Shown: in pieces, positions 17,258 to 62,568 of the stretch | Numbering within the stretch: the first letter of the stretch is position 1 | Layout of the letters: each line of letters opens with the position of its first letter | Assembly (NCBI GenBank): GCA_947588355.1 | Contig: CANPYI010000004.1 | Coordinates: forward strand, 1,244 to 65,243 | DNA: 64,000 nt | Origin: an uncultured Clostridia bacterium | GTDB taxonomy: Bacteria > Bacillota > Clostridia > Christensenellales > UBA1242 | Direction of reading: 5' to 3' | The notes under the pieces: generated by a model | The model's input: the letters and a program-made list of their open reading frames with translations, nothing else | What the model was told of the DNA's origin: nothing | Databases searched by the model: none | Position numbers and translations under genes: made by a program

Positions 17258-19225
17258 TTACTCAAGCATTTTCAAAATGTCGCTTTCAGAAATAATTTCC
17301 ACGCCCAAAGTTTTTGCTTTTTCAAGTTTGCTGCCCGCTTCCTCGCCCGCCAAAACAAAGGTTGTGTTTTTGGAAACGCTTGAAGAAGTTTTTCCGCCGT
17401 TTTCCTCAATCAATTTTGTCATTTCGGGTCTGGAATAGTTTGGCAAAGTGCCCGTCAAAACAAAAGTAAGGCCTTCAAGTTTGTCCGATTGTGCATTTTG
17501 TTGTTTTTGAATTTTCACTCCAACCGACAAAAGTCGTTCAATTTCCTTCAAATTGTTTTCGTTTTCAAAATAGTCCACAATATTTTGTGCAATAACTTCG
17601 CCAATGTCCTCAATGCCGTCCACTTGCTCAAAATTTGCACTTTGCAAAGATGACAAATCTTTGAAAGTTTTTGCCAAGTCTTTTGCGGTTTTAGTTCCGA
17701 CTTCGCTTATGCCAAGAGCAAAAATAAAGCGTGAAAAATCGATGTTTTTGGAACGTTCAAGACTGTCCAAAACATTTTGTGCTTTTTTGTCTGCAAACTT
17801 TTCAAGCCCGACAAGTTGCTGTTTTGTCAAGTGATACAAATCTGAATAGTGACGAAGATTTAGGTCGTCATAAAACTGAATAATAGTTTTTTCAGAAAGT
17901 CCTTCAATATCAAACGCCTCTCGCGAACAAAAATGAGTGAGCCTTGCCACAACTTGTTGTTTGCAGCCATAGTAATTTGTGCAAAACACAAGAGGACCCT
18001 TTTTGACAAGTTTTTCGCCACAACATGGACAAAAGTTTGGCTCGTCAATCTCTTTTGAATTTTCCAATTTTTCCGCCAGTCCCAAAACCTCTGGAATCAC
18101 CTCGTTTGAGCGGCGAATAAAAACACGACTGTTAAGGTACACATTCTTTTTACGAATATCTTCAATATTGTTTAATGTCGCACGCTGAATTGTTGCCCCT
18201 GCAAGTTCCACAGGCTCAAGAATGGCAGTTGGCGAAACTTTTCCTGTTCTGCCAACCTGCCAAACAACATCTTTCAGCAAGGTGGAAACCTCTTCTGCCT
18301 CAAACTTGTATGCCACCGCCCATTTTGGAAACTTGTTTGTGTAGCCAATTTCTTCGCGCGGAGCAACTTGATTTAGTTTTATCACCACACCGTCAATCAT
18401 AACATCAAGTTTGTTTTTGACTTCATCAATATGGTTTATTATCTTCATTGCCTCATCTTTGGTTTTTACAATTTCAAAAAAATCGCCCGTTTTGAAGCCA
18501 TTTTCCGCCAAAAAATTGTGCATGTCTTGTTGTGAAGCAAATTTTTTGCCCTCGCAAAGCAAAATCGCATAGCAAAAATAATCCAAATTTCTGCGTGCAG
18601 TTTCCTTTGGATCAAGATTTCTTATCGCGCCCGCAACTCCGTTTCTCGGATTTTTAAGTGGCTCACTGGCTGTCTTGTTGTATTTTTTGAACGCCGAGTT
18701 TGTCATCATGCCCTCGCCTTGCAAAATAAGCCTGCCCTTGAAGGGGATTTCCAGCGGAACGCTTTTGATTGTCTTGACCTGCTCTGTCACATCTTCACCA
18801 ATTTCTCCATTTCCGCGAGTGGTGGCAGAAACAAATTTGCCGTTTTGATATTCAGTGACAATGGTCAGCCCGTCAAATTTGTACTCCACAGCAAAAGAGG
18901 CGTCTTTGACCGCTTTTTGCATATCGGCAAAAAAATCAGAAAGTTCTTCGTCCGAACGCACCTTGTTCATGGAATAAAGCCTGACTTCATGGCGTTTTTT
19001 GACAAATTTGTCCAAAACATCTCCACCAACACGCTGAGTTGGAGAGTTTGGCAAAATTACGCCAGTTTCTTTTTCCAAATCCACAAGTTCATAGTACAAC
19101 TTGTCGTATTCTTTGTCTGAAATTGTTGGATTGTCAAGTTCGTAATAGTTTTTGTTGTGAAAAAGCACTTCGTCAACAAGTTTTTTCATTCGCTCTAATT
19201 TTTTGTCAAGGTCGCTCATCTTCAA
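17258..19225 (-). CDS. ligA: NAD-dependent DNA ligase
   Basis: 655 aa with adenylation motif EYKFDGL, a Zn finger CPCCGEKLV...C..C, HhH and BRCT regions. Confidence 0.97.
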   Translation of the reverse strand: MKMSDLDKKLERMKKLVDEVLFHNKNYYELDNPTISDKEYDKLYYELVDLEKETGVILPNSPTQRVGGDVLDKFVKKRHEVRLYSMNKVRSDEELSDFFADMQKAVKDASFAVEYKFDGLTIVTEYQNGKFVSATTRGNGEIGEDVTEQVKTIKSVPLEIPFKGRLILQGEGMMTNSAFKKYNKTASEPLKNPRNGVAGAIRNLDPKETARRNLDYFCYAILLCEGKKFASQQDMHNFLAENGFKTGDFFEIVKTKDEAMKIINHIDEVKNKLDVMIDGVVIKLNQVAPREEIGYTNKFPKWAVAYKFEAEEVSTLLKDVVWQVGRTGKVSPTAILEPVELAGATIQRATLNNIEDIRKKNVYLNSRVFIRRSNEVIPEVLGLAEKLENSKEIDEPNFCPCCGEKLVKKGPLVFCTNYYGCKQQVVARLTHFCSREAFDIEGLSEKTIIQFYDDLNLRHYSDLYHLTKQQLVGLEKFADKKAQNVLDSLERSKNIDFSRFIFALGISEVGTKTAKDLAKTFKDLSSLQSANFEQVDGIEDIGEVIAQNIVDYFENENNLKEIERLLSVGVKIQKQQNAQSDKLEGLTFVLTGTLPNYSRPEMTKLIEENGGKTSSSVSKNTTFVLAGEEAGSKLEKAKTLGVEIISESDILKMLE

Positions 19226-23737: not shown

Positions 23738-24877
23738 TTATTGTAAATTGTTCATTTTTCCTTTAAATTCCTTAACTTTTGGAAAATCATTTTCATCAAA
23801 TTTGTTGTCAAGGTCTTTCAGAATGTCGCGCGCTTTTTTGGTGAGATTTTTTGGCACTTCGCTTTTGATTGTCACCAAAATATCGCCATAAGCGTCACGA
23901 TTAAGCACTTTCACACCCTTGCCTTTCACACGCACAACTGTGCCGTTCAGCGTGCCAGGTTCAAGGTCGATTGTTTTTCTGCCTTTTGTAAGCGGAATTT
24001 CGATTTTTCCGCCCATAAGACAAGTGGTAAAAGGTACATACAAATCAAACAGCAAGTCCGTGCCGACACGCTTGAAAATAGGATGTTGTGCAACCATCAC
24101 TTTGATGTTTAAATCGCCAGCAATTCCTTGACCAGCAGGGCCATTGCCTTCCCCTCGCATACGAATAGTTTGACCGTCGTCAATGCCGGCGGGAACTTTC
24201 ACACGCACTTGTGCAGGAACTTTTTTGCAACCTTTTCCGCCACATTCTTCACAGCGCTCTTTAATCATTTTGCCTGTGCCATTGCAACGAGGACAAACAG
24301 TCTCACGAATAGTTGTGCCAAAAACGGTGTTTTGCTGAATACGTACTCTTCCCATGCCCTTACAATCAGGACAGGTGGTGAATTCTTTGCCGTTTTTCGC
24401 TCCCGTGCCATTACATTTTTTGCACGTTTCAATGCGGTTGAAGGAAATAAGTTTTTCCACACCAAAAACTGCCTCATCAAAAGAAAGACGCATGGAGATG
24501 TTTATGTCCTCACCCCTTTCTTGCACGCGAGAGCCTCTTGCTCCGCCACCGCCAAAAGCGGAAAAAATATCCGAAAAAATATCCGAAAACCCACCAAAGC
24601 CGCCGCCGGCACCATTAAAGAAATCGCCAAAGCCACCGGCACCGCCCTGAAATTGAGGGCCGTCGGCCGAGCCATATTGGTCATAATTGGCACGTTTTTT
24701 CTCGTCGCCCAAAACCTCATATGCCTCGTTTATTTCTTTAAATTTTTCAGCAGCCTCAGGTGTTTTGTTAAGGTCAGGGTGATATTTTTTTGCAAGGCGA
24801 CGATATGCAGACTTGATTTCGTCTGCATCTGCGCCCTTGCTCACCCCCAAAATTTCATAATAATCTTTGCCTGCCAT
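23738..24877 (-). CDS. dnaJ: chaperone DnaJ
   Basis: J domain with HPD, G/F region, four CxxCxGxG repeats. Confidence 0.97.
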
Positions 24878-24962: not shown

Positions 24963-26795
24963 TTATTCAATAGTGACATCAGGATCATTTCCGTCATTGT
25001 TTGTGCTTGTGTTGTTTCCTGATGTTTCGTTTGTGTTGTTTGCTCCGTTTGGATTGGCGTTTTGATACATCTTTGTGAACACTTCGTTGGAAACTTTTGT
25101 AAGTTCGTCAAGTTCTTTCTTGATAACTTCTATGTCGTCACTTTCAAACTCTTTCTTTGCTTTTTCAATCTCGTCTTCCAAGCGTTTTTTGTCCTCAGCG
25201 GAAAGTTTGTCGCCGTTTTCTTTCAACATCTTTTCAAGAGTGTAAACCATGTTGTCGGCATTATTTTTTGTTTCAACAAACTCTTTGCGTTTTTTGTCCT
25301 CTTCTGCGTGAGCTTCTGCCTCTTTGATTGCCCTGTCAATATCTTCCTCTTTAAGATTTGAAGAAGCAGTGATTGTGATGTTTTGCTCCTTGTTTGTGCC
25401 AAGGTCTTTGGCAGAAACTTTCACAATGCCGTTGGCATCGATATCAAAAGTAACTTCAATTTGAGGAACACCGCGTGGAGCAGGTGGAATATCAGAAAGT
25501 TGGAATCTGCCCAAAGTTTTGTTTTGAGCGGCAAATTCGCGTTCGCCTTGCAAAACGTGAATGTCCACGCCTGGTTGATTGTCGGCAGCGGTAGAAAAGA
25601 TTTGAGATTTTTTGGTTGGAATTGTTGTGTTGCGTTCGATAAGTTTTGTAAAGATTCCGCCCATTGTTTCGATACCAAGTGAAAGTGGAGTAACGTCCAA
25701 CAAAAGCACATCTTTAACTTCGCCTGCCAAAACTCCGGCTTGGATTGCAGCACCAACTGCAACACATTCATCTGGATTTATGCCCTTGAATGGCTCTTTG
25801 CCGGTGAATTTTTTGACTGCTTCAACAACTGCAGGAATACGAGTTGAGCCGCCCACCAAAATCACTTTGTCGATTTGAGATGTGGAAAGTTTGGCGTCCT
25901 TAAGCGCTCTTTCGCAGCATTCAATAGTTTCTTTCACCAAATCTTCGGTCAAAGAGTCAAATTTGGCACGAGTGAGTTCACATTCCAAGTGTTTTGGACC
26001 GTTTGCATCAGCAGTTATAAATGGAATAGAAACGTTGACCATTGTTTTTGCAGAAAGGTCAATCTTTGTCTTTTCGGCTTCGTCCTTCAAACGTTGCATT
26101 GCAAGTTTGTCTTTTGAAAGGTCCATTCCACCGTTGCGACTCTTGAATTCCTCAACAAGATAGTCAATAATACGATTGTCAAAGTCATCTCCGCCAAGAC
26201 GAGTGTTTCCGTTTGTGGACAAAACTTCAAACACATTGTCGCCGATTTCCAAAATGGAAACATCGAATGTTCCGCCACCAAGGTCATACACCAAAATTTT
26301 CTGATTTTGATTTTCACCTTTGTCAAGTCCATAAGCAAGTGCGGCAGCAGTAGGCTCGTTGATGATACGCAAAACTTCAAGTCCGGCAATTTTTCCGGCA
26401 TCTTTTGTTGCTTGACGCTGACTGTCATTGAAATATGCAGGCACAGTGATGACTGCTTGTGTCACTTTTCCGCCCAAATAACTTTCTGCATCTGACTTAA
26501 GTTTGGACAAAATCATGGCAGAAATTTCTTGCGGAGAATATTCTTTTCCGCCCATTTTTGCCTTAAAGTTTGTGCCCATTTCGCGTTTGATAGATATAAC
26601 TGTGTTTTCTCCGTTTATGATTGCTTGACGTTTTGCCACTTTTCCGACAAGACGTTCGCCCTCTTTGGTGGTTGCCACAACAGAAGGTGTTGTTCTGTCC
26701 CCCTCTGCGTTTGCAATGACTGTAGGTTTTCCACCTTCCATAACAGCCACGCATGAATTTGTTGTTCCAAGGTCAATTCCGATAATTTTACTCAT
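24963..26795 (-). CDS. dnaK: chaperone DnaK (Hsp70)
   Basis: 610 aa with [10 protein letters not shown] and DLGGGTFD motifs. Confidence 0.98.
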
Positions 26796-26839: not shown

Positions 26840-27463
26840 TTATAATTTATTTACAACAACTTTTGAATATCTAAGCACTTTGTCATTCATTGTCCAACCC
26901 GATTGATACTCTTCCAAAATAATGTCATTTTCTTTGCTTTCATCTTTCATGACTGCAATAACATTGTGTAAATGCGGGTCAAATTGCTTGCCAACTGATT
27001 CGATTTTTTGAACATTCAAAGTGGAAAGAGCGGATAAGATTTTTTCTTCTATCATGTTTATTCCCGTCAAAACTTTTTCGTCAGAAACACTTTTCTTTGC
27101 TTCCTTAAAAGCGTCCAAGCATGGCAAAAACACTTCAATCACACTTTTTATGCCCTCCTGCCTTTCTCGGTCAAGTTGCTCTGCAACTCGCTTGCGATAG
27201 TTGTCAAAGTCGGCTTGCAACCGCTGTGCCAAAGCAAGATATTCTGCCGCAAGGTCTTTTTTTGGAGGACAGCCACACGCACAACCGTCTCCGTTTTCTG
27301 CTTGGTCGTGACATGTGCATTCTTCGCATTCGCACTCATCTTCACAGCATTCGCACTCGTTTTGACAATCGCAATCTTCGTGCTGACAAGTTTCTTCTTT
27401 CTTGTCAATTTCACATTCGTGCGTTTGTTTTTCAAAGTTGTCTTGTTTTTCTTTCTTGCCCAT
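26840..27463 (-). CDS. grpE: nucleotide exchange factor GrpE with a Cys-rich N-terminal extension
   Basis: C-terminal 140 aa is a canonical GrpE (LQADFDNYRKR, FDPHLHNVI). Residues 17-65 hold 14 Cys in CxC/CC patterns. Confidence 0.93.
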   Translation of the reverse strand: MGKKEKQDNFEKQTHECEIDKKEETCQHEDCDCQNECECCEDECECEECTCHDQAENGDGCACGCPPKKDLAAEYLALAQRLQADFDNYRKRVAEQLDRERQEGIKSVIEVFLPCLDAFKEAKKSVSDEKVLTGINMIEEKILSALSTLNVQKIESVGKQFDPHLHNVIAVMKDESKENDIILEEYQSGWTMNDKVLRYSKVVVNKL

Positions 27464-27464
27464 T

Positions 27465-28448
27465 TTATTCTCCTTTTTCGTCTGAAAGTTGGTCGATCAC
27501 CACTTTAAGTGCAGAAGCAATACTCAAATAGTCCATTTTTTGCGGGCCAAACACCCCAATAGACGCCACTTGCTTGCCTCCAACCAAAATTGGTGCTTTC
27601 ACTACGGAACATTTGTCATCGTCAATTCTGGCAGAGATACCCTCGTTTTTATCCAAAACTTCAATCAGTTCGTTTTCGTCACTCAGTGTTTTAAGGACTT
27701 TTTTTGCTTCATCGGCAGAAGAATTGTCCACCAAATCCACAACACCCTCGGACTGAACATTCAAAAGTTTTTGTTTGTTTAGCCGCGAAAGTCCCACAAC
27801 AACATTGTCAACAACCGATTGAAAGGCGGAAATTTCGCCATGCATACCTGCCTTAAACTGCTGGATGTTGTCCATCAAAAAGCCCATAGTTTCGCCTTTG
27901 AAATACTTGGTCAAATAATTTGAAGCATCTTCGCAACTTTTGGCATTTGTGGAAATTTCCAACTGCTGAGTGATGTAGCCGTAGTTTGTGCCAATCAAAA
28001 CCATACATTTTTCGCCCAGAAGTGGCACAATCTTAAATTCGTCCAAAATCAAATTTTCAATACCATTCACAAGGACAACTGTCGGATAATTTGTGGCTTT
28101 GCTTATGATTTTTGCAATTCCAGAAACGATTTCGCTGAGATTTTTTGTCCTGTTTTCGATAAGTTGCCTGACCTCTTTCAGTTCGCTGTTTGTTGCTTTG
28201 ACATTTTTAAGCATGTTTTCCACATAAAACCGATAGCCTTGTGCTGTTGGCACCCTCCCGCCAGAAGTATGGAGTTGTTTCAAAAACCCCATAGCCTCCA
28301 AAGCGTTAAGTTCGGAGCGCAGTGTGGCAGTTGAGCAATCAAGAGCGGTCCTATCTTTGACAGAGCCACTTGTGATTGGAGCACTGTCCTTTATAAACTC
28401 CTCAACAGCAATGTTTAAAATTTTGATTTTCCTTTCAGAAAGTTCCAT
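27465..28448 (-). CDS. hrcA: heat-inducible transcription repressor HrcA
   Basis: 327 aa with a winged-helix N-terminus; first gene of the hrcA-grpE-dnaK-dnaJ operon. Confidence 0.93.
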   Translation of the reverse strand: MELSERKIKILNIAVEEFIKDSAPITSGSVKDRTALDCSTATLRSELNALEAMGFLKQLHTSGGRVPTAQGYRFYVENMLKNVKATNSELKEVRQLIENRTKNLSEIVSGIAKIISKATNYPTVVLVNGIENLILDEFKIVPLLGEKCMVLIGTNYGYITQQLEISTNAKSCEDASNYLTKYFKGETMGFLMDNIQQFKAGMHGEISAFQSVVDNVVVGLSRLNKQKLLNVQSEGVVDLVDNSSADEAKKVLKTLSDENELIEVLDKNEGISARIDDDKCSVVKAPILVGGKQVASIGVFGPQKMDYLSIASALKVVIDQLSDEKGE

Positions 28449-28473: not shown

Positions 28474-28502
28474 CTAGCACTCTCGACTTGCAAGTGCTAG
28501 CA
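28474..28502. promoter_or_regulatory. CIRCE operator (HrcA binding site)
   Basis: GCTAGCACTC-tcgacttgc-AAGTGCTAGC is a close match to TTAGCACTC-N9-GAGTGCTAA. It lies just downstream of the hrcA promoter -10. Confidence 0.88.
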
Positions 28503-28534: not shown

Positions 28535-28686
28535 CATTTTTGCCAAAATTTTTAAAATTTTTTTTACTTTTTTTGAATGTAAAATTTATTGAGCCTAATT
28601 TTATTATTTTTTGTTGAATTATTTTCGTGACCAAAACAAACACACGTGCATATCATAATAGTGTATGGACTTTAAGGAGGTTTAAA

Positions 28687-29355
28687 ATGTCATTTTACAT
28701 CAACAACACCAACCCAAACAGACCAGGACCAATTTGCGGTAATGTTACAAATGGAATATGTGAAAAAATCTTGATTCAAACGACAAAAGTTTTTGACGCG
28801 TGCGTTTGTTCCACGACAGAAACTGGCATTGTTTTGACCGGCACTGACTTTTTCCCAGCCAATCCTGTTCAACCGCTTACATATGTGTCAGCGGAAAACA
28901 CACAAGGACAAAGTGCAACAATTTCTGACCTTGTGATTGACCGTCTTGAAAGTTGTCCAAACTATGCAAACGTTTCTTTCACTTTGACAATTCCTGTAAC
29001 AATCACCTACAGCGATGCCACTGGTGCACTTGGCTCCGCACTTTCAACAATCACAGTAACAAAATCTGTAATTTTGTTTGTGCCACAACCTGCACTTGCG
29101 CCTATTGACATTGTTGCAACAGGGATCTTCAGCAGCAGAATCGGAAGTTTCACTGCACCAAACATCTTCACTGTGACAGGGTGTATCCAAGTTATTGTAA
29201 GAGTGGTCAGCGTGGTTGATGTCCTTGTGCCATCGTATGGCTATCCTGTTTTGCCACCTTGCAAACAAGCACCACAACAAAGTGCATGTCCAGGGCTTTC
29301 GGATTTGCCAATCTATCCAACAGCGACAGCAGTTGGCACAATTCCACAAATTTAA
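28687..29355 (+). CDS. hypothetical Cys-containing beta-rich protein (possible spore-surface component)
   Basis: Start MSFYINN behind AAGGAGG. T/V/I/S-rich with an N-terminal Cys cluster (ICGNVTNGICEKILIQTTKVFDACVC) and a C-terminal P/Q/C-rich tail. Sigma-K-like -10 CATATCATA at 28649-28657. Confidence 0.6.
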   Translation: MSFYINNTNPNRPGPICGNVTNGICEKILIQTTKVFDACVCSTTETGIVLTGTDFFPANPVQPLTYVSAENTQGQSATISDLVIDRLESCPNYANVSFTLTIPVTITYSDATGALGSALSTITVTKSVILFVPQPALAPIDIVATGIFSSRIGSFTAPNIFTVTGCIQVIVRVVSVVDVLVPSYGYPVLPPCKQAPQQSACPGLSDLPIYPTATAVGTIPQI

Positions 29356-33537: not shown

Positions 33538-33613
33538 GACCTCATAGTAAAACTGGATATTACGGCCCCCTCCTAAGGGGTTGTTCTGGGTTCGAGTCCC
33601 GGTGGGGTCACCA
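33538..33613 (+). tRNA. tRNA-Arg (anticodon CCU), CCA encoded
   Basis: Hand-folded. Acceptor gacctca/tggggtc (one G-U), U8, D stem gtaa/ttac with a GG loop. Anticodon stem gcccc/ggggt, loop cTCCTaa. T arm ctggg-TTCGAGT-cccgg, discriminator A plus CCA. Confidence 0.88.
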
Positions 33614-60788: not shown

Positions 60789-61061
60789 TTGAACATTACG
60801 GACATTAGAGTAAGAATTGTCAACAACAGCAACGACAAACTCAAGGCAGTGGCTTCAATCACAATTGATGATGAACTTGTTGTACACGACATCAAAATCA
60901 TCAATGGCGAAAAAGGATATTTCCTTTCAATGCCAAGCCGCAAGACAAGTGAAGGAGAATTTAAGGACATTGTTCACCCAATCAAAACACAAGTGCGTGA
61001 AGAATTGAAAGAAAAAATTCTCAAAGCATACGAAGATGCTCTTGCTGCAAACAATCAATAA
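60789..61061 (+). CDS. spoVG: septation/sporulation regulator SpoVG
   Basis: TTG start behind GGAAGG. ITDIRVRIVNNSNDKLKAVASITIDDELVVHDIKII.GEKGYFLSMPSRK. Confidence 0.93.
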   Translation: MNITDIRVRIVNNSNDKLKAVASITIDDELVVHDIKIINGEKGYFLSMPSRKTSEGEFKDIVHPIKTQVREELKEKILKAYEDALAANNQ

Positions 61062-61074
61062 AGAGTTTTAAATA

Positions 61075-61107
61075 ATAAAAAAATAGGCATTTTTGCCTAT
61101 TTTTTTA
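61075..61107. terminator. bidirectional terminator between spoVG and ypeB
   Basis: A7-taggca-tttt-tgccta-T7. Confidence 0.8.
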
Positions 61108-62568
61108 CATCAATTTTGACCCGTCATCTGTTTCGACAACTTTGAGGATATTTTCTTCAAGTCCGGTCTGTGCATTCAAATAAATATAATATGTCGCACC
61201 ATTTCGCTCGGCCTCAAACTCATAGCAAAGCACCTCGCGGTTGAAATCAAGCGGTGCAAGCACAAGCCTTTGACCTACGATATTGAAACTTTTGTCCACT
61301 CTTTCACGAGCAAGGTCAACGCCAATGCCACCTTGCTTTATATCTCTGTTTGTGTGATTTGTGAAGTATGAAATGGCATCATAGCCAATCACGTCGCCGT
61401 GTTCAAGATCCACTTTCACTTTCACAAGGTCGGGATAAAGGACCACATCACCTTGTTTTGGCGTGATATTGAAGTATGCCTGACTTTTCAGTTCTTGTTT
61501 CCAAACAATGCTTGCGTTTTCCACACCGTTTGCTTTGGCAAAATCCAATGCGATTTTTTCCGCTTTTGCCATGTCAATATTGCGTTGGTCACTGTCCAAA
61601 TTTCCGCTGACTGTCAGCACATGACCGCCAATTTTTGTCACCTGAACAAACAATTTTTGGTCGTCACTGTTTGAAAGTGTAAAGTTGTATGTGGCAAATT
61701 TTCCGTCAGTTTGATTGTCATATTTCAAATTTGCGGTGTTTTTAAACAATTTGTCCACTTTTTCATACGCTTGTTCTTTGGGAATTTCATTTCCAGAAAG
61801 CCCCTTCACTTTTGCATTGACAACGCTGTCCGAAAATGGCCCGTCATATATCATTGAAGGATAGTCTGTGTCGTCGGTTTTTATTTGAGCGAAATCCAAC
61901 GAAAATTCGTCATAGTCGCCATTCATCCTGTTGGAGGCTTCCAAAATACTGTAGCCGTCAAGCATTTTTTGTGACATGCGGTTGAGATATCTCTTCATTT
62001 CGGTCAAACTTTCATGCATTTCGTTTAATGTTTTAAGGTCACTTTCTGACAAAGAGCCGCCCTTTGCAAGTTTTTCCTCCAAAGTTTGAGTGTAGCCCGA
62101 CATCTGATTGATAAATTTGACACTTTCCATAATGTTCTCGCCCGTGAGAGGCAGTGCGGCAACATTGTTTTGCATGTCGTATGATGCTTGTGCAATTTCA
62201 GTAAGCATTTTGGCTTGATAGTTGTCGTCCTTAGATGCCAAAAGTTTGCTTATTTTCATGTCAGCATTGTTGGCGTTGTCCACAAGTTCGTAATAATTCT
62301 TCTTGTAAATGTTTTCAATCTGCAAGCCATAACTGTTTGCCTGACTTTGTGTTATGCCATAGGCAATGCCAAGCCCCAAAGTGCTTGCTCCCAAAATGCT
62401 TGTGGCAATTGTAAGCCCGACAACCGCACCAGAAAGAGCACGAATTTTTTGCGGTCTGTTTTTGTTTTCTTTTTTATTTTTCATGCTTTTAGGATTATTA
62501 TTTTTGTCAGACTTATTCATATTTTCGTCTGCCATAACTTTTTTCAAATTCACATCTTGCTTTTTCAT
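61105..62568 (-). CDS. ypeB: germination protein YpeB
   Basis: 487 aa with an N-terminal TM and PepSY-type C-terminal repeats; immediately downstream of sleB. Confidence 0.88.
   Translation of the reverse strand: MKKQDVNLKKVMADENMNKSDKNNNPKSMKNKKENKNRPQKIRALSGAVVGLTIATSILGASTLGLGIAYGITQSQANSYGLQIENIYKKNYYELVDNANNADMKISKLLASKDDNYQAKMLTEIAQASYDMQNNVAALPLTGENIMESVKFINQMSGYTQTLEEKLAKGGSLSESDLKTLNEMHESLTEMKRYLNRMSQKMLDGYSILEASNRMNGDYDEFSLDFAQIKTDDTDYPSMIYDGPFSDSVVNAKVKGLSGNEIPKEQAYEKVDKLFKNTANLKYDNQTDGKFATYNFTLSNSDDQKLFVQVTKIGGHVLTVSGNLDSDQRNIDMAKAEKIALDFAKANGVENASIVWKQELKSQAYFNITPKQGDVVLYPDLVKVKVDLEHGDVIGYDAISYFTNHTNRDIKQGGIGVDLARERVDKSFNIVGQRLVLAPLDFNREVLCYEFEAERNGATYYIYLNAQTGLEENILKVVETDDGSKLM

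Follow-up and report, generated by a model that had tools for sequence, protein, structure and literature searches.

A GrpE co-chaperone with a metallothionein-like N-terminal extension in uncultured gut Clostridia

GrpE is the nucleotide-exchange factor that partners DnaK, whose release of ADP it accelerates. Here, we describe a GrpE of 207 residues encoded in a 64,000-nucleotide stretch of DNA from an uncultured Clostridia bacterium (assembly GCA_947588355.1, contig CANPYI010000004.1, positions 1,244 to 65,243), the whole of which is referred to as the window. The analysis confirmed that this protein is a genuine GrpE carrying a metallothionein-like N-terminal extension: a canonical core is preceded by a 49-residue module in which 14 residues are Cys. 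The protein reads as a working nucleotide-exchange factor, and the same predicted architecture is common to hundreds of gut-bacterial GrpEs. A known co-chaperone is found to bear a widespread, previously undescribed tail of metal-binding type, the function of which we infer wholly from sequence.

A Cys-rich module precedes a canonical core

The tail of the window GrpE is divided into three parts (Table 1): a leader in which Phe10 is the sole hydrophobic residue beyond Met1, the Cys-rich module, which reads CEIDKKEETCQHEDCDCQNECECCEDECECEECTCHDQAENGDGCACGC, and a short hinge. A preliminary description of this DNA, made from the letters alone, had claimed a module of 14 Cys in CxC, CC and CxxC spacing, set among acidic residues with three His nearby. 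The exact translation agrees, as do the residue counts: residues 17–65 comprise 14 Cys, 12 Glu, 6 Asp and 2 His, with the third His at residue 15, and the Cys are arranged as six CxC, two Cx3C, one CC and one CxxC. The tail carries 22 acidic residues against 6 basic ones, its only hydrophobic residues between positions 2 and 66 are F10 and I19, and it contains ECECCEDECECEEC, which is essentially an α-peptide (Glu-Cys)n run.

Cys makes up 1.9% of the long open reading frames (ORFs) of the window. At this background, a stretch of 49 residues would contain 14 or more Cys by chance with a probability of 3e-13; corrected for all positions and both strands, the figure becomes about 4e-8. The densest 40-residue segment of the GrpE holds 13 Cys, and the next real gene in the window reaches 6, in the zinc finger of a 653-aa ORF (17258–19219). 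From its sequence, and with no Pfam check, we take this ORF to be a DNA ligase.

The core that follows the tail is matched by the Pfam GrpE family (PF01025) with an E-value of 5.9e-33 and a score of 114 bits (cut-off 25.8), over residues 73–206 only. In addition, 26 GrpE models of NCBIfam match (best E 8.5e-30), every one of them below its own equivalog cut-off, and the closest solved structure is that of Geobacillus GrpE (4ani; E 1.5e-19), which aligns with residues 80–204. An AlphaFold2 (AF2) model, built with a 115-sequence alignment, gives residues 71–207 a predicted local distance difference test score (pLDDT) above 90 and places helices at 71–125 and 129–148 and six β-strands at 151–205. 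The coiled coil and β-domain that had been said to follow the Cys tail are borne out by both the Pfam match and the predicted fold.

Residues 1–70 have a pLDDT of 40–60 and no secondary structure in the same model. This predicted disorder, which is also a feature of apo-metallothioneins, fits a segment that is unstructured when its ligand is missing, but is no proof of one. Alignment offsets suggest that the module occupies the place taken in the E. coli and Geobacillus proteins by the disordered tail together with the first turns of the long helix.

Translation start

As the Pfam model begins only at residue 73, it could be argued that the annotation is wrong: the true start of GrpE would lie downstream, and the Cys stretch would be either an untranslated leader or a separate small gene. 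The preliminary description had named such a downstream start as the finding that would undo it. The ATG at 27463 is, instead, the only in-frame ATG, GTG or TTG ahead of codon 78. TTG78 lies in a conserved helix, close to Y75, L76 and A79, which do not vary among relatives, and is not preceded by a Shine-Dalgarno (SD) site; a search for alternative starts or a short isoform of the window grpE gave no candidate with an SD site. The annotated ATG is preceded by an SD site inside the 3′ end of hrcA (Table 1), and the hrcA stop ends one base ahead of it, an adjacency that suggests translational coupling.

Further support came from the related loci, where Met1 is likewise adjoined by an SD site and by the hrcA stop. 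At each of 19 species-representative loci, the long ORF closest upstream, which is hrcA to judge by its position, terminates at or over the grpE ATG: 14 loci have a gap of 0, and at the other five the two genes overlap by 4, 8 or 35 bases. The junction has the form GGAGA(A/T)TA(A/G) directly followed by ATG in 16 of the 19, and the window version, AAAGGAGAATAA followed by ATG, recurs at most related loci. In a second, distant GrpE lineage (explained below), hrcA and grpE overlap by 8 bases. The frame is also open, and its composition conserved, in more than 230 homologues inspected. Read from this gene layout, the Cys tail is shown to be translated from the annotated ATG. The annotation-artefact reading is effectively refuted by the sequence evidence, and we regard it as extremely improbable.

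Conservation of the tail in related GrpEs

A homologue search of 5.8 billion proteins returned 767 matches at E ≤1e-5, and the best 120 were inspected. At least six Cys lie ahead of the GrpE core in 113 of the best 120 of these 767 homologues (range 6–35, median 15), and the median length of the tail among the 113 is 69 aa. The remaining seven consist of five N-terminally truncated fragments and two proteins with 4–5 Cys. Cys and Glu each account for 21% of the pooled tails of this first lineage, Asp for 11.5%, His for 9.4% and Lys for 9%, while hydrophobic residues amount to only about 4%. Relatives open with an MKKK...E leader similar to that of the window. CxC is the commonest Cys spacing (772 cases), followed by Cx3C (351), and the commonest words, ECTCGD, CGDEC and CGDDC, represent a hexapeptide C-x-C-G-D/E-x repeat.

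At 18 of the 19 closest species-representative loci, the GrpE tail has 5–24 Cys. By their GenBank record titles, the 19 are uncultured Catabacter, Christensenella or Clostridia metagenome-assembled genomes (MAGs) and come from the gut of deer, rabbit, goat, human and mouse, plus rumen. At the remaining locus (L017; rumen MAG RUG14149, 1276 onward), a normal GrpE core is preceded by a Cys-free tail of 28 aa with hydrophobic residues (IEDVDPAEIF), which represents either a natural loss of the module or the ancestral state. Among more distant matches, GrpEs without a Cys tail are found in Bacillus, Acidobacteriota, archaea and other Christensenella-labelled MAGs, and 4–6 Cys occur in the GrpE tail of a few Clostridiales MAGs, of which two carry the label DTU. 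The preliminary description had also staked its claim on the extension being present and conserved in close relatives, and had called for its taxonomic spread to be mapped. With 113 of 120 relatives carrying it, and a second deep GrpE lineage besides, the extension is neither absent nor restricted to one genome: Cys tails are found both in gut Clostridia relatives and in that second lineage.

Four relatives (L014, L015, L016 and L011) have GrpE tails of 121–133 aa with 23–27 His (e.g., HEHKHKHHHDHECHCHKHDH...HKHHHEHEHDKHH) and 14–23 Cys. These His-dominated tails resemble the nickel- or zinc-binding His-rich proteins Hpn, HspA and SlyD.

Within the tails, the Cys residues and their surroundings behave differently. 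In the 115-sequence alignment, conservation reaches 90% or more at four of the Cys columns of the tail, and in a subgroup of 35 sequences of equal length the Cys columns are 98.9% conserved, equal to the core columns, versus 91% for the spacer columns. Tail length ranges from 35 to 131 aa across relatives. Since DNA tandem repeats of 18- and 12-base period occur in the grpE tails of relatives, and since large insertions separate the tails of close relatives (e.g., P0075 versus P0094), tail length evolves via the gain and loss of repeats. Cys that are held while length and spacers change fast are the pattern expected if selection acted on ligand residues and not on a fold.

The same variability could be read as neutral low-complexity expansion, in which a slippage-prone GA(R/Y)-TG(Y) repeat drifted into a tolerant acidic tail and acquired no specific role. 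The spread of lengths from 35 to 131 aa, the 12- and 18-base repeats, the one clade member that does without the module and the lack of a predicted fold all agree with this. Against it, Cys is a costly and reactive residue with a background of 1.9%, yet it is kept near 21% across lineages whose cores are 35% identical, and its columns are conserved like the core while the spacers vary. In addition, no DNA tandem repeat was found in the window grpE tail, so that this copy is no recent microsatellite expansion, and the neighbouring genes show no Cys bias: in the flanks of the 19 loci, Cys-dense segments occur in GrpEs only (15 of 99 ORFs). We consider it quite improbable that the tail is functionally neutral.

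A second GrpE lineage and other carriers of the module

A profile built from 30 tails was searched against 5.8 billion and 1.84 billion proteins at E ≤1e-3. It gave only 19 and 11 matches, most of them GrpE and the rest DUF1292 proteins plus one or two unknowns. The low complexity of the sequence makes for a weak profile, and these few matches give no basis for inferring absence elsewhere.

The second GrpE lineage, which was retrieved with this profile and is represented by P0142, has a core that is only 35% identical to the window core and is at most 42% identical to any named locus. A Cys tail, with 7–21 Cys in 42–82 aa, is present in all 120 of the best 120 among the 5115 matches to this lineage (E ≤1e-10). 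One of its loci, L084, has 28% GC and an operon of the order hrcA-grpE-(77-aa ORF)-dnaK-dnaJ; the samples of this lineage are named STEW19-1. The 77-aa ORF, seen in L084 and L085 (6620–6853), has no Pfam match, overlaps the grpE stop and lies before dnaK. The dnaK and dnaJ genes of L084 are separated by an inserted gene for an M3 oligopeptidase.

The two lineages share a nearly identical stretch, NCGCAEGKECTCG(D/E)xCxCGDSCTC, in their tails. At the DNA level they are 78% identical over 74 bases of the tail, whereas similarity in the core is confined to patches of about 45 bases. Common descent under constraint could account for this likeness, as could an exchange of the module or convergence brought about by a restricted choice of codons.

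The module is enriched on GrpE but is not exclusive to it. Four DUF1292 (PF06949) proteins from gut metagenomes (P0123, P0131, P0132 and P0137) contain a CxCG(D/E)xCxC module of 35–55 residues, inserted internally. The P0123 gene (L086, 1220–1639) adjoins genes for an FtsK/SpoIIIE-type ATPase of 1536 aa and a WXG100 protein, a neighbourhood that looks like a type VII secretion locus. A further protein without a Pfam domain, P0126 (194 aa, from a Logan contig), carries a Cys-rich module of this grammar at each terminus, one on either side of a central region. A tblastn search of the window found no Cys-bearing DUF1292 gene; one weak match at 61111–61161 falls in ypeB and was dismissed as spurious.

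Comparison with metallothioneins and related peptides

Metallothioneins (MTs) are recognised by four operational features: a Cys content of about 15–35% with CxC, CC and CxxC spacings, few or no aromatic residues, a free protein of under about 10 kDa, and a high content of metal bound in metal-thiolate clusters. The window module has 28.6% Cys (14/49) in these spacings and no aromatic residue, F10 being the only one in residues 1–66. It departs from the third feature, as its approximately 5.5 kDa are part of a 207-aa GrpE.

Family membership was sought in Pfam, NCBIfam and the PDB, and was rejected, as only sub-threshold matches were obtained. The Pfam MT families (PF00131, PF01439, PF02069 and others) gave no match to the window tail at E ≤10, and PF00131 was matched by two of five relatives' tails at 16 bits and E 0.01, under its cut-off of 23. 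The NCBIfam MT models gave no match to the tail, nor did PF02069 even at E ≤10. The best PDB matches, likewise below threshold, are the Cd-metallothionein 6qk5 (E 0.6–2.6) and 1qjl (E 9.4). The module resembles a metallothionein in composition and motif grammar but cannot be assigned to a metallothionein family.

The likeness is to eukaryotic MTs, which have 20–30% Cys, no aromatic residues and a CxC or CxCG(D/S)xCxC grammar. For example, the snail Cd-MT 6qk5 has CQCGSKCQCGEGCTC, with the motif CxCGxxCxCGxxCxC, and GrpE relatives have CTCGDDCQCGDSCTC. Plant type 1/2 and fungal MTs also contain CxCGxxCxC motifs. Eukaryotic MTs are free proteins, whereas the tail is fused to a folded protein of 15 kDa. 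Among bacterial proteins, SmtA/BmtA and MymT are similarly small cytosolic Cys(/His) sequences of metal-buffering type, but SmtA has a zinc-finger-like fold and a fixed Cys/His pattern, while the GrpE module is repetitive and variable in length.

The grammar of the window copy is closer to that of (Glu-Cys)n-Gly peptides such as EC11 and EC20, which its (Glu-Cys)n run resembles. Designed, alpha-linked (Glu-Cys)n peptides have been produced in bacteria to bind heavy metals (PMC4292183, PMC4611968). Phytochelatins are gamma-linked products of an enzyme and the EC peptides are engineered; the run in the window is natural, ribosomally made and irregular, and is located in a chaperone cofactor.

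Comparison with other chaperones

A heat-shock co-chaperone with a metal-binding tail is known from Helicobacter pylori. HspA, a GroES, ends in a His/Cys-rich C-terminal tail that is dispensable; this tail binds, stores, detoxifies and donates nickel and supports hydrogenase maturation (PMC3856676). The window GrpE is likewise an essential heat-shock co-chaperone with an added low-complexity His/Cys tail that can be absent while the core is normal, as in L017, and many of its relatives are rich in His (up to 27). The differences are that the HspA tail is C-terminal, His-dominated, confined to Helicobacter and of demonstrated nickel function, while the present tail is N-terminal, dominated by Cys and acidic residues, and found on GrpE in gut Firmicutes.

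In E. coli, according to a 2026 study, the GrpE tail binds the substrate site of DnaK via the hydrophobic residues 17-IIM-19 (PMC12915176), and the N-terminal tail of GrpE has been debated as a pseudo-substrate that aids client release by DnaK (PMC12915176, PMC12987570). The window tail shares with the E. coli tail (residues 1–33) its position, disorder and net negative charge, and it too precedes the long helix. In place of an IIM motif, it offers Phe10 and Ile19 and a 49-residue module that is 29% Cys. As it is nearly free of hydrophobic residues, by analogy any pseudo-substrate binding of DnaK of the E. coli type is probably lost or weakened. A conserved hydrophobic motif, E-D-F-x-L, preceding the Cys module was considered as a possible DnaK-binding element and dropped, since it occurs in 19 of 115 proteins of the first lineage and in 0 of 120 of the second.

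Stress input into GrpE itself is also known: E. coli GrpE has a thermosensor helix, and a disulfide at Cys87 of vertebrate GrpEL2 modulates Hsp70 binding (PMC12987570). In having such an input built into the exchange factor or chaperone, the window protein would resemble both of these and Hsp33. GrpEL2 uses one Cys, and Hsp33 is folded with four Cys and one Zn, whereas here 14–35 Cys lie in a disordered tail.

The architecture had been put forward as undescribed, and this agrees with the literature: full-text searches of open-access papers brought up no Cys-rich, metallothionein-like or metal-binding GrpE, and a 2025 review of GrpE-like factors, in which neither "metal" nor "zinc" appears, treats the N-terminus as a variable disordered region (PMC12987570). 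Sources that name the carrier proteins at all call them just "nucleotide exchange factor GrpE" and assign them to Clostridia MAGs. Every carrier found is uncultured, and this is the probable reason for the gap.

Proposed function of the tail

The evidence favours metal binding by the tail. We propose that it binds soft or borderline metals in clusters of thiolate and imidazole ligands, so that an abundant, stress-induced, dimeric co-chaperone would buffer or store metal in the cytosol; the balance of the evidence leans, by a little, towards this proposal being correct. Here, the usual acidic, disordered GrpE tail would have been replaced by a low-complexity module of Cys, Glu and Asp (with His in relatives). 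Because the PPKKD hinge ties the module directly to the dimer-forming long helix, the GrpE dimer would display two tails, with 28 Cys, side by side. The empty tail would be disordered and would fold round Zn(II), Cu(I), Cd(II), Ni(II) and possibly Fe(II). As grpE is located in an HrcA/CIRCE operon (described below), more of this metal sponge would be made when proteins misfold, and induction would raise the metal-buffering capacity whether misfolding is caused by metals or by other stresses. The co-chaperone would double as an inducible metal buffer or store, as the HspA tail does for nickel.

Several points weigh against a metal-buffering tail. There is no significant match to a metallothionein family, and the resemblance is one of composition and motif grammar. 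The CxCG(D/E)xCxC Gly motif, present in about 60% of relatives and comparable to that of 6qk5-type MTs, is missing from the window copy, and the tail is strongly acidic, unlike the classical MTs, which are rich in Lys, Ser and Gly. The absence of the module from L017 means that it is dispensable for GrpE function, and its presence in DUF1292 proteins and in P0126 argues for a generic property and not for a mechanism specific to GrpE. Finally, a tail so rich in thiols is equally suited to redox chemistry.

The last point leads to a different function, in which the 14 thiols (28 per dimer) of these strictly anaerobic hosts would be oxidised by O2, H2O2 or HOCl to disulfides within or between chains, and the tail would tune DnaK under oxidative stress as a redox switch or be spent as a sacrificial thiol buffer. 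Bound Zn could be released in the process, as in Hsp33, and a cross-link at the base of the two long helices or a collapse of the tail would alter nucleotide exchange or substrate release. The dense, conserved Cys lie directly against the dimeric helix, the part that senses temperature in E. coli GrpE; the regulation reported for GrpEL2 is Cys-based (PMC12987570), and the hosts are gut anaerobes. A switch, though, needs one or two Cys; 14–35 Cys set in a CxC grammar, joined in many relatives by plentiful His, are the signature of metal clusters, and the same module is found in the unrelated DUF1292 proteins. A redox role of this kind is unlikely in our judgement.

The preliminary description had suggested a metal or redox input into the DnaK cycle, which is plausible. 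A related idea is that the tail is a regulatory switch operated by metal or by oxidation. Either would fold or cross-link the paired tails and change the stability of the helix, the reach of the tail, nucleotide exchange and substrate release. We hold this to be a minority possibility, about as improbable as the purely redox role. If true, gut anaerobes would possess a metal- and redox-gated Hsp70 system, which two or more deep GrpE lineages would have evolved or gained by exchange.

The preliminary description had listed Zn, Cu, Cd and Fe-S as candidate ligands, and of these Fe-S is the least likely because the usual Fe-S Cys spacings are missing. A tail that housed an Fe-S cluster could link GrpE and DnaK to Fe-S maturation or oxygen sensing. 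Such a link would be in keeping with a Cys-rich tail in an anaerobic host, and in other organisms the assembly of Fe-S clusters involves Hsp70 systems. The tail, however, is dominated by CxC in place of spacings such as CxxCxxCxxxCP, the number of Cys among relatives (6–35) is incompatible with a fixed cluster site, and no Fe-S domain of Pfam or NCBIfam matches. An Fe-S domain is thus a very remote prospect, and metal binding through thiolate and imidazole clusters is the function that we put forward.

The heat-shock operon and its surroundings

The grpE gene is located in a classical Firmicutes class I heat-shock operon, with the context typical of GrpE (dnaK and dnaJ as neighbours, HrcA and CIRCE as regulators). 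A repeat resembling CIRCE (controlling inverted repeat of chaperone expression) is followed by hrcA-grpE-dnaK-dnaJ-rsmE-mtaB, where the last two encode an RsmE-type methyltransferase and a MiaB/MtaB-type radical-SAM enzyme. The repeat differs from the consensus TTAGCACTC-N9-GAGTGCTAA at three positions, both outer bases among them, and had 0 matches in 100 shuffles. The features are collected in Table 1.

Table 1. Features of the GrpE tail, the heat-shock operon and two sporulation-related genes in the 64,000-nucleotide window
Feature	Position	Strand	Evidence
grpE coding sequence, 207 aa + stop	26840..27463	-	ORF list; PF01025; NCBIfam GrpE models; PDB 4ani
N-terminal leader, residues 1–16, MGKKEKQDNFEKQTHE	27416..27463	-	Lys/Glu-rich; similar MKKK...E leader in relatives
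Cys/Glu/Asp-rich module, metallothionein- or (Glu-Cys)n-like, residues 17–65	27269..27415	-	Translation, composition, homologues
PPKKD hinge, residues 66–70, joins Cys module to long helix	27254..27268	-	Sequence; AF2 helix from residue 71
Canonical GrpE core, residues 73–206 (long helix, helical bundle, β-domain)	26846..27247	-	Pfam; AF2
SD site AGGAG, six bases 5′ of grpE ATG, inside hrcA 3′ end	27470..27474	-	Sequence
CIRCE-like inverted repeat CTAGCACTC-N9-AAGTGCTAG upstream of hrcA, presumed HrcA operator	28474..28500	+	Motif match
hrcA, 327 aa	27465..28448	-	PF01628, E 2.5e-24
dnaK, 610 aa, GrpE partner, directly downstream	24963..26795	-	PF00012, E 4.8e-251
dnaJ, 379 aa, intact zinc finger, four CxxCxGxG motifs	23738..24877	-	PF00684, E 2.6e-16
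ypeB	61105..62568	-	Pfam (PF14620, PF20769, PepSY)
spoVG homologue	60789..61061	+	Homology

The idea that the Cys tail compensates for a degenerate zinc finger in DnaJ was rejected, as all four CxxCxGxG motifs are present. The C-terminus of DnaK (24963–25060) is a low-complexity tail rich in Asn, Thr and Gly, where an acidic or Gly-rich end is typical. Between hrcA and a GDPD-family gene lies an ORF of 242 aa (28627–29355, + strand) with no Pfam match; at the corresponding place in L081, which is of the same species, a gene of 222 aa is called, also with no Pfam match. The only Rfam match at the gathering threshold in the window is a tRNA gene (33538–33610, + strand).

The homologues of YpeB and SpoVG make it reasonable to call the organism a spore-former. 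The link between the GrpE tail and the spore coat that had been suggested at the outset finds no support, although both genes are present.

Significance

GrpE is among the most studied of co-chaperones, and a large uncultured part of the Firmicutes of the animal gut has replaced its tail with a polycysteine module. If the tail gates nucleotide exchange, it would be a new route by which metal or redox status is fed into the Hsp70 cycle. If the tail binds metal, it would be the second natural case, after HspA, of a heat-shock co-chaperone that doubles as a metal store. It would also be a candidate for the metallothionein function that is largely missing in Firmicutes, and may hint at how gut anaerobes handle dietary loads of Zn and Cu.

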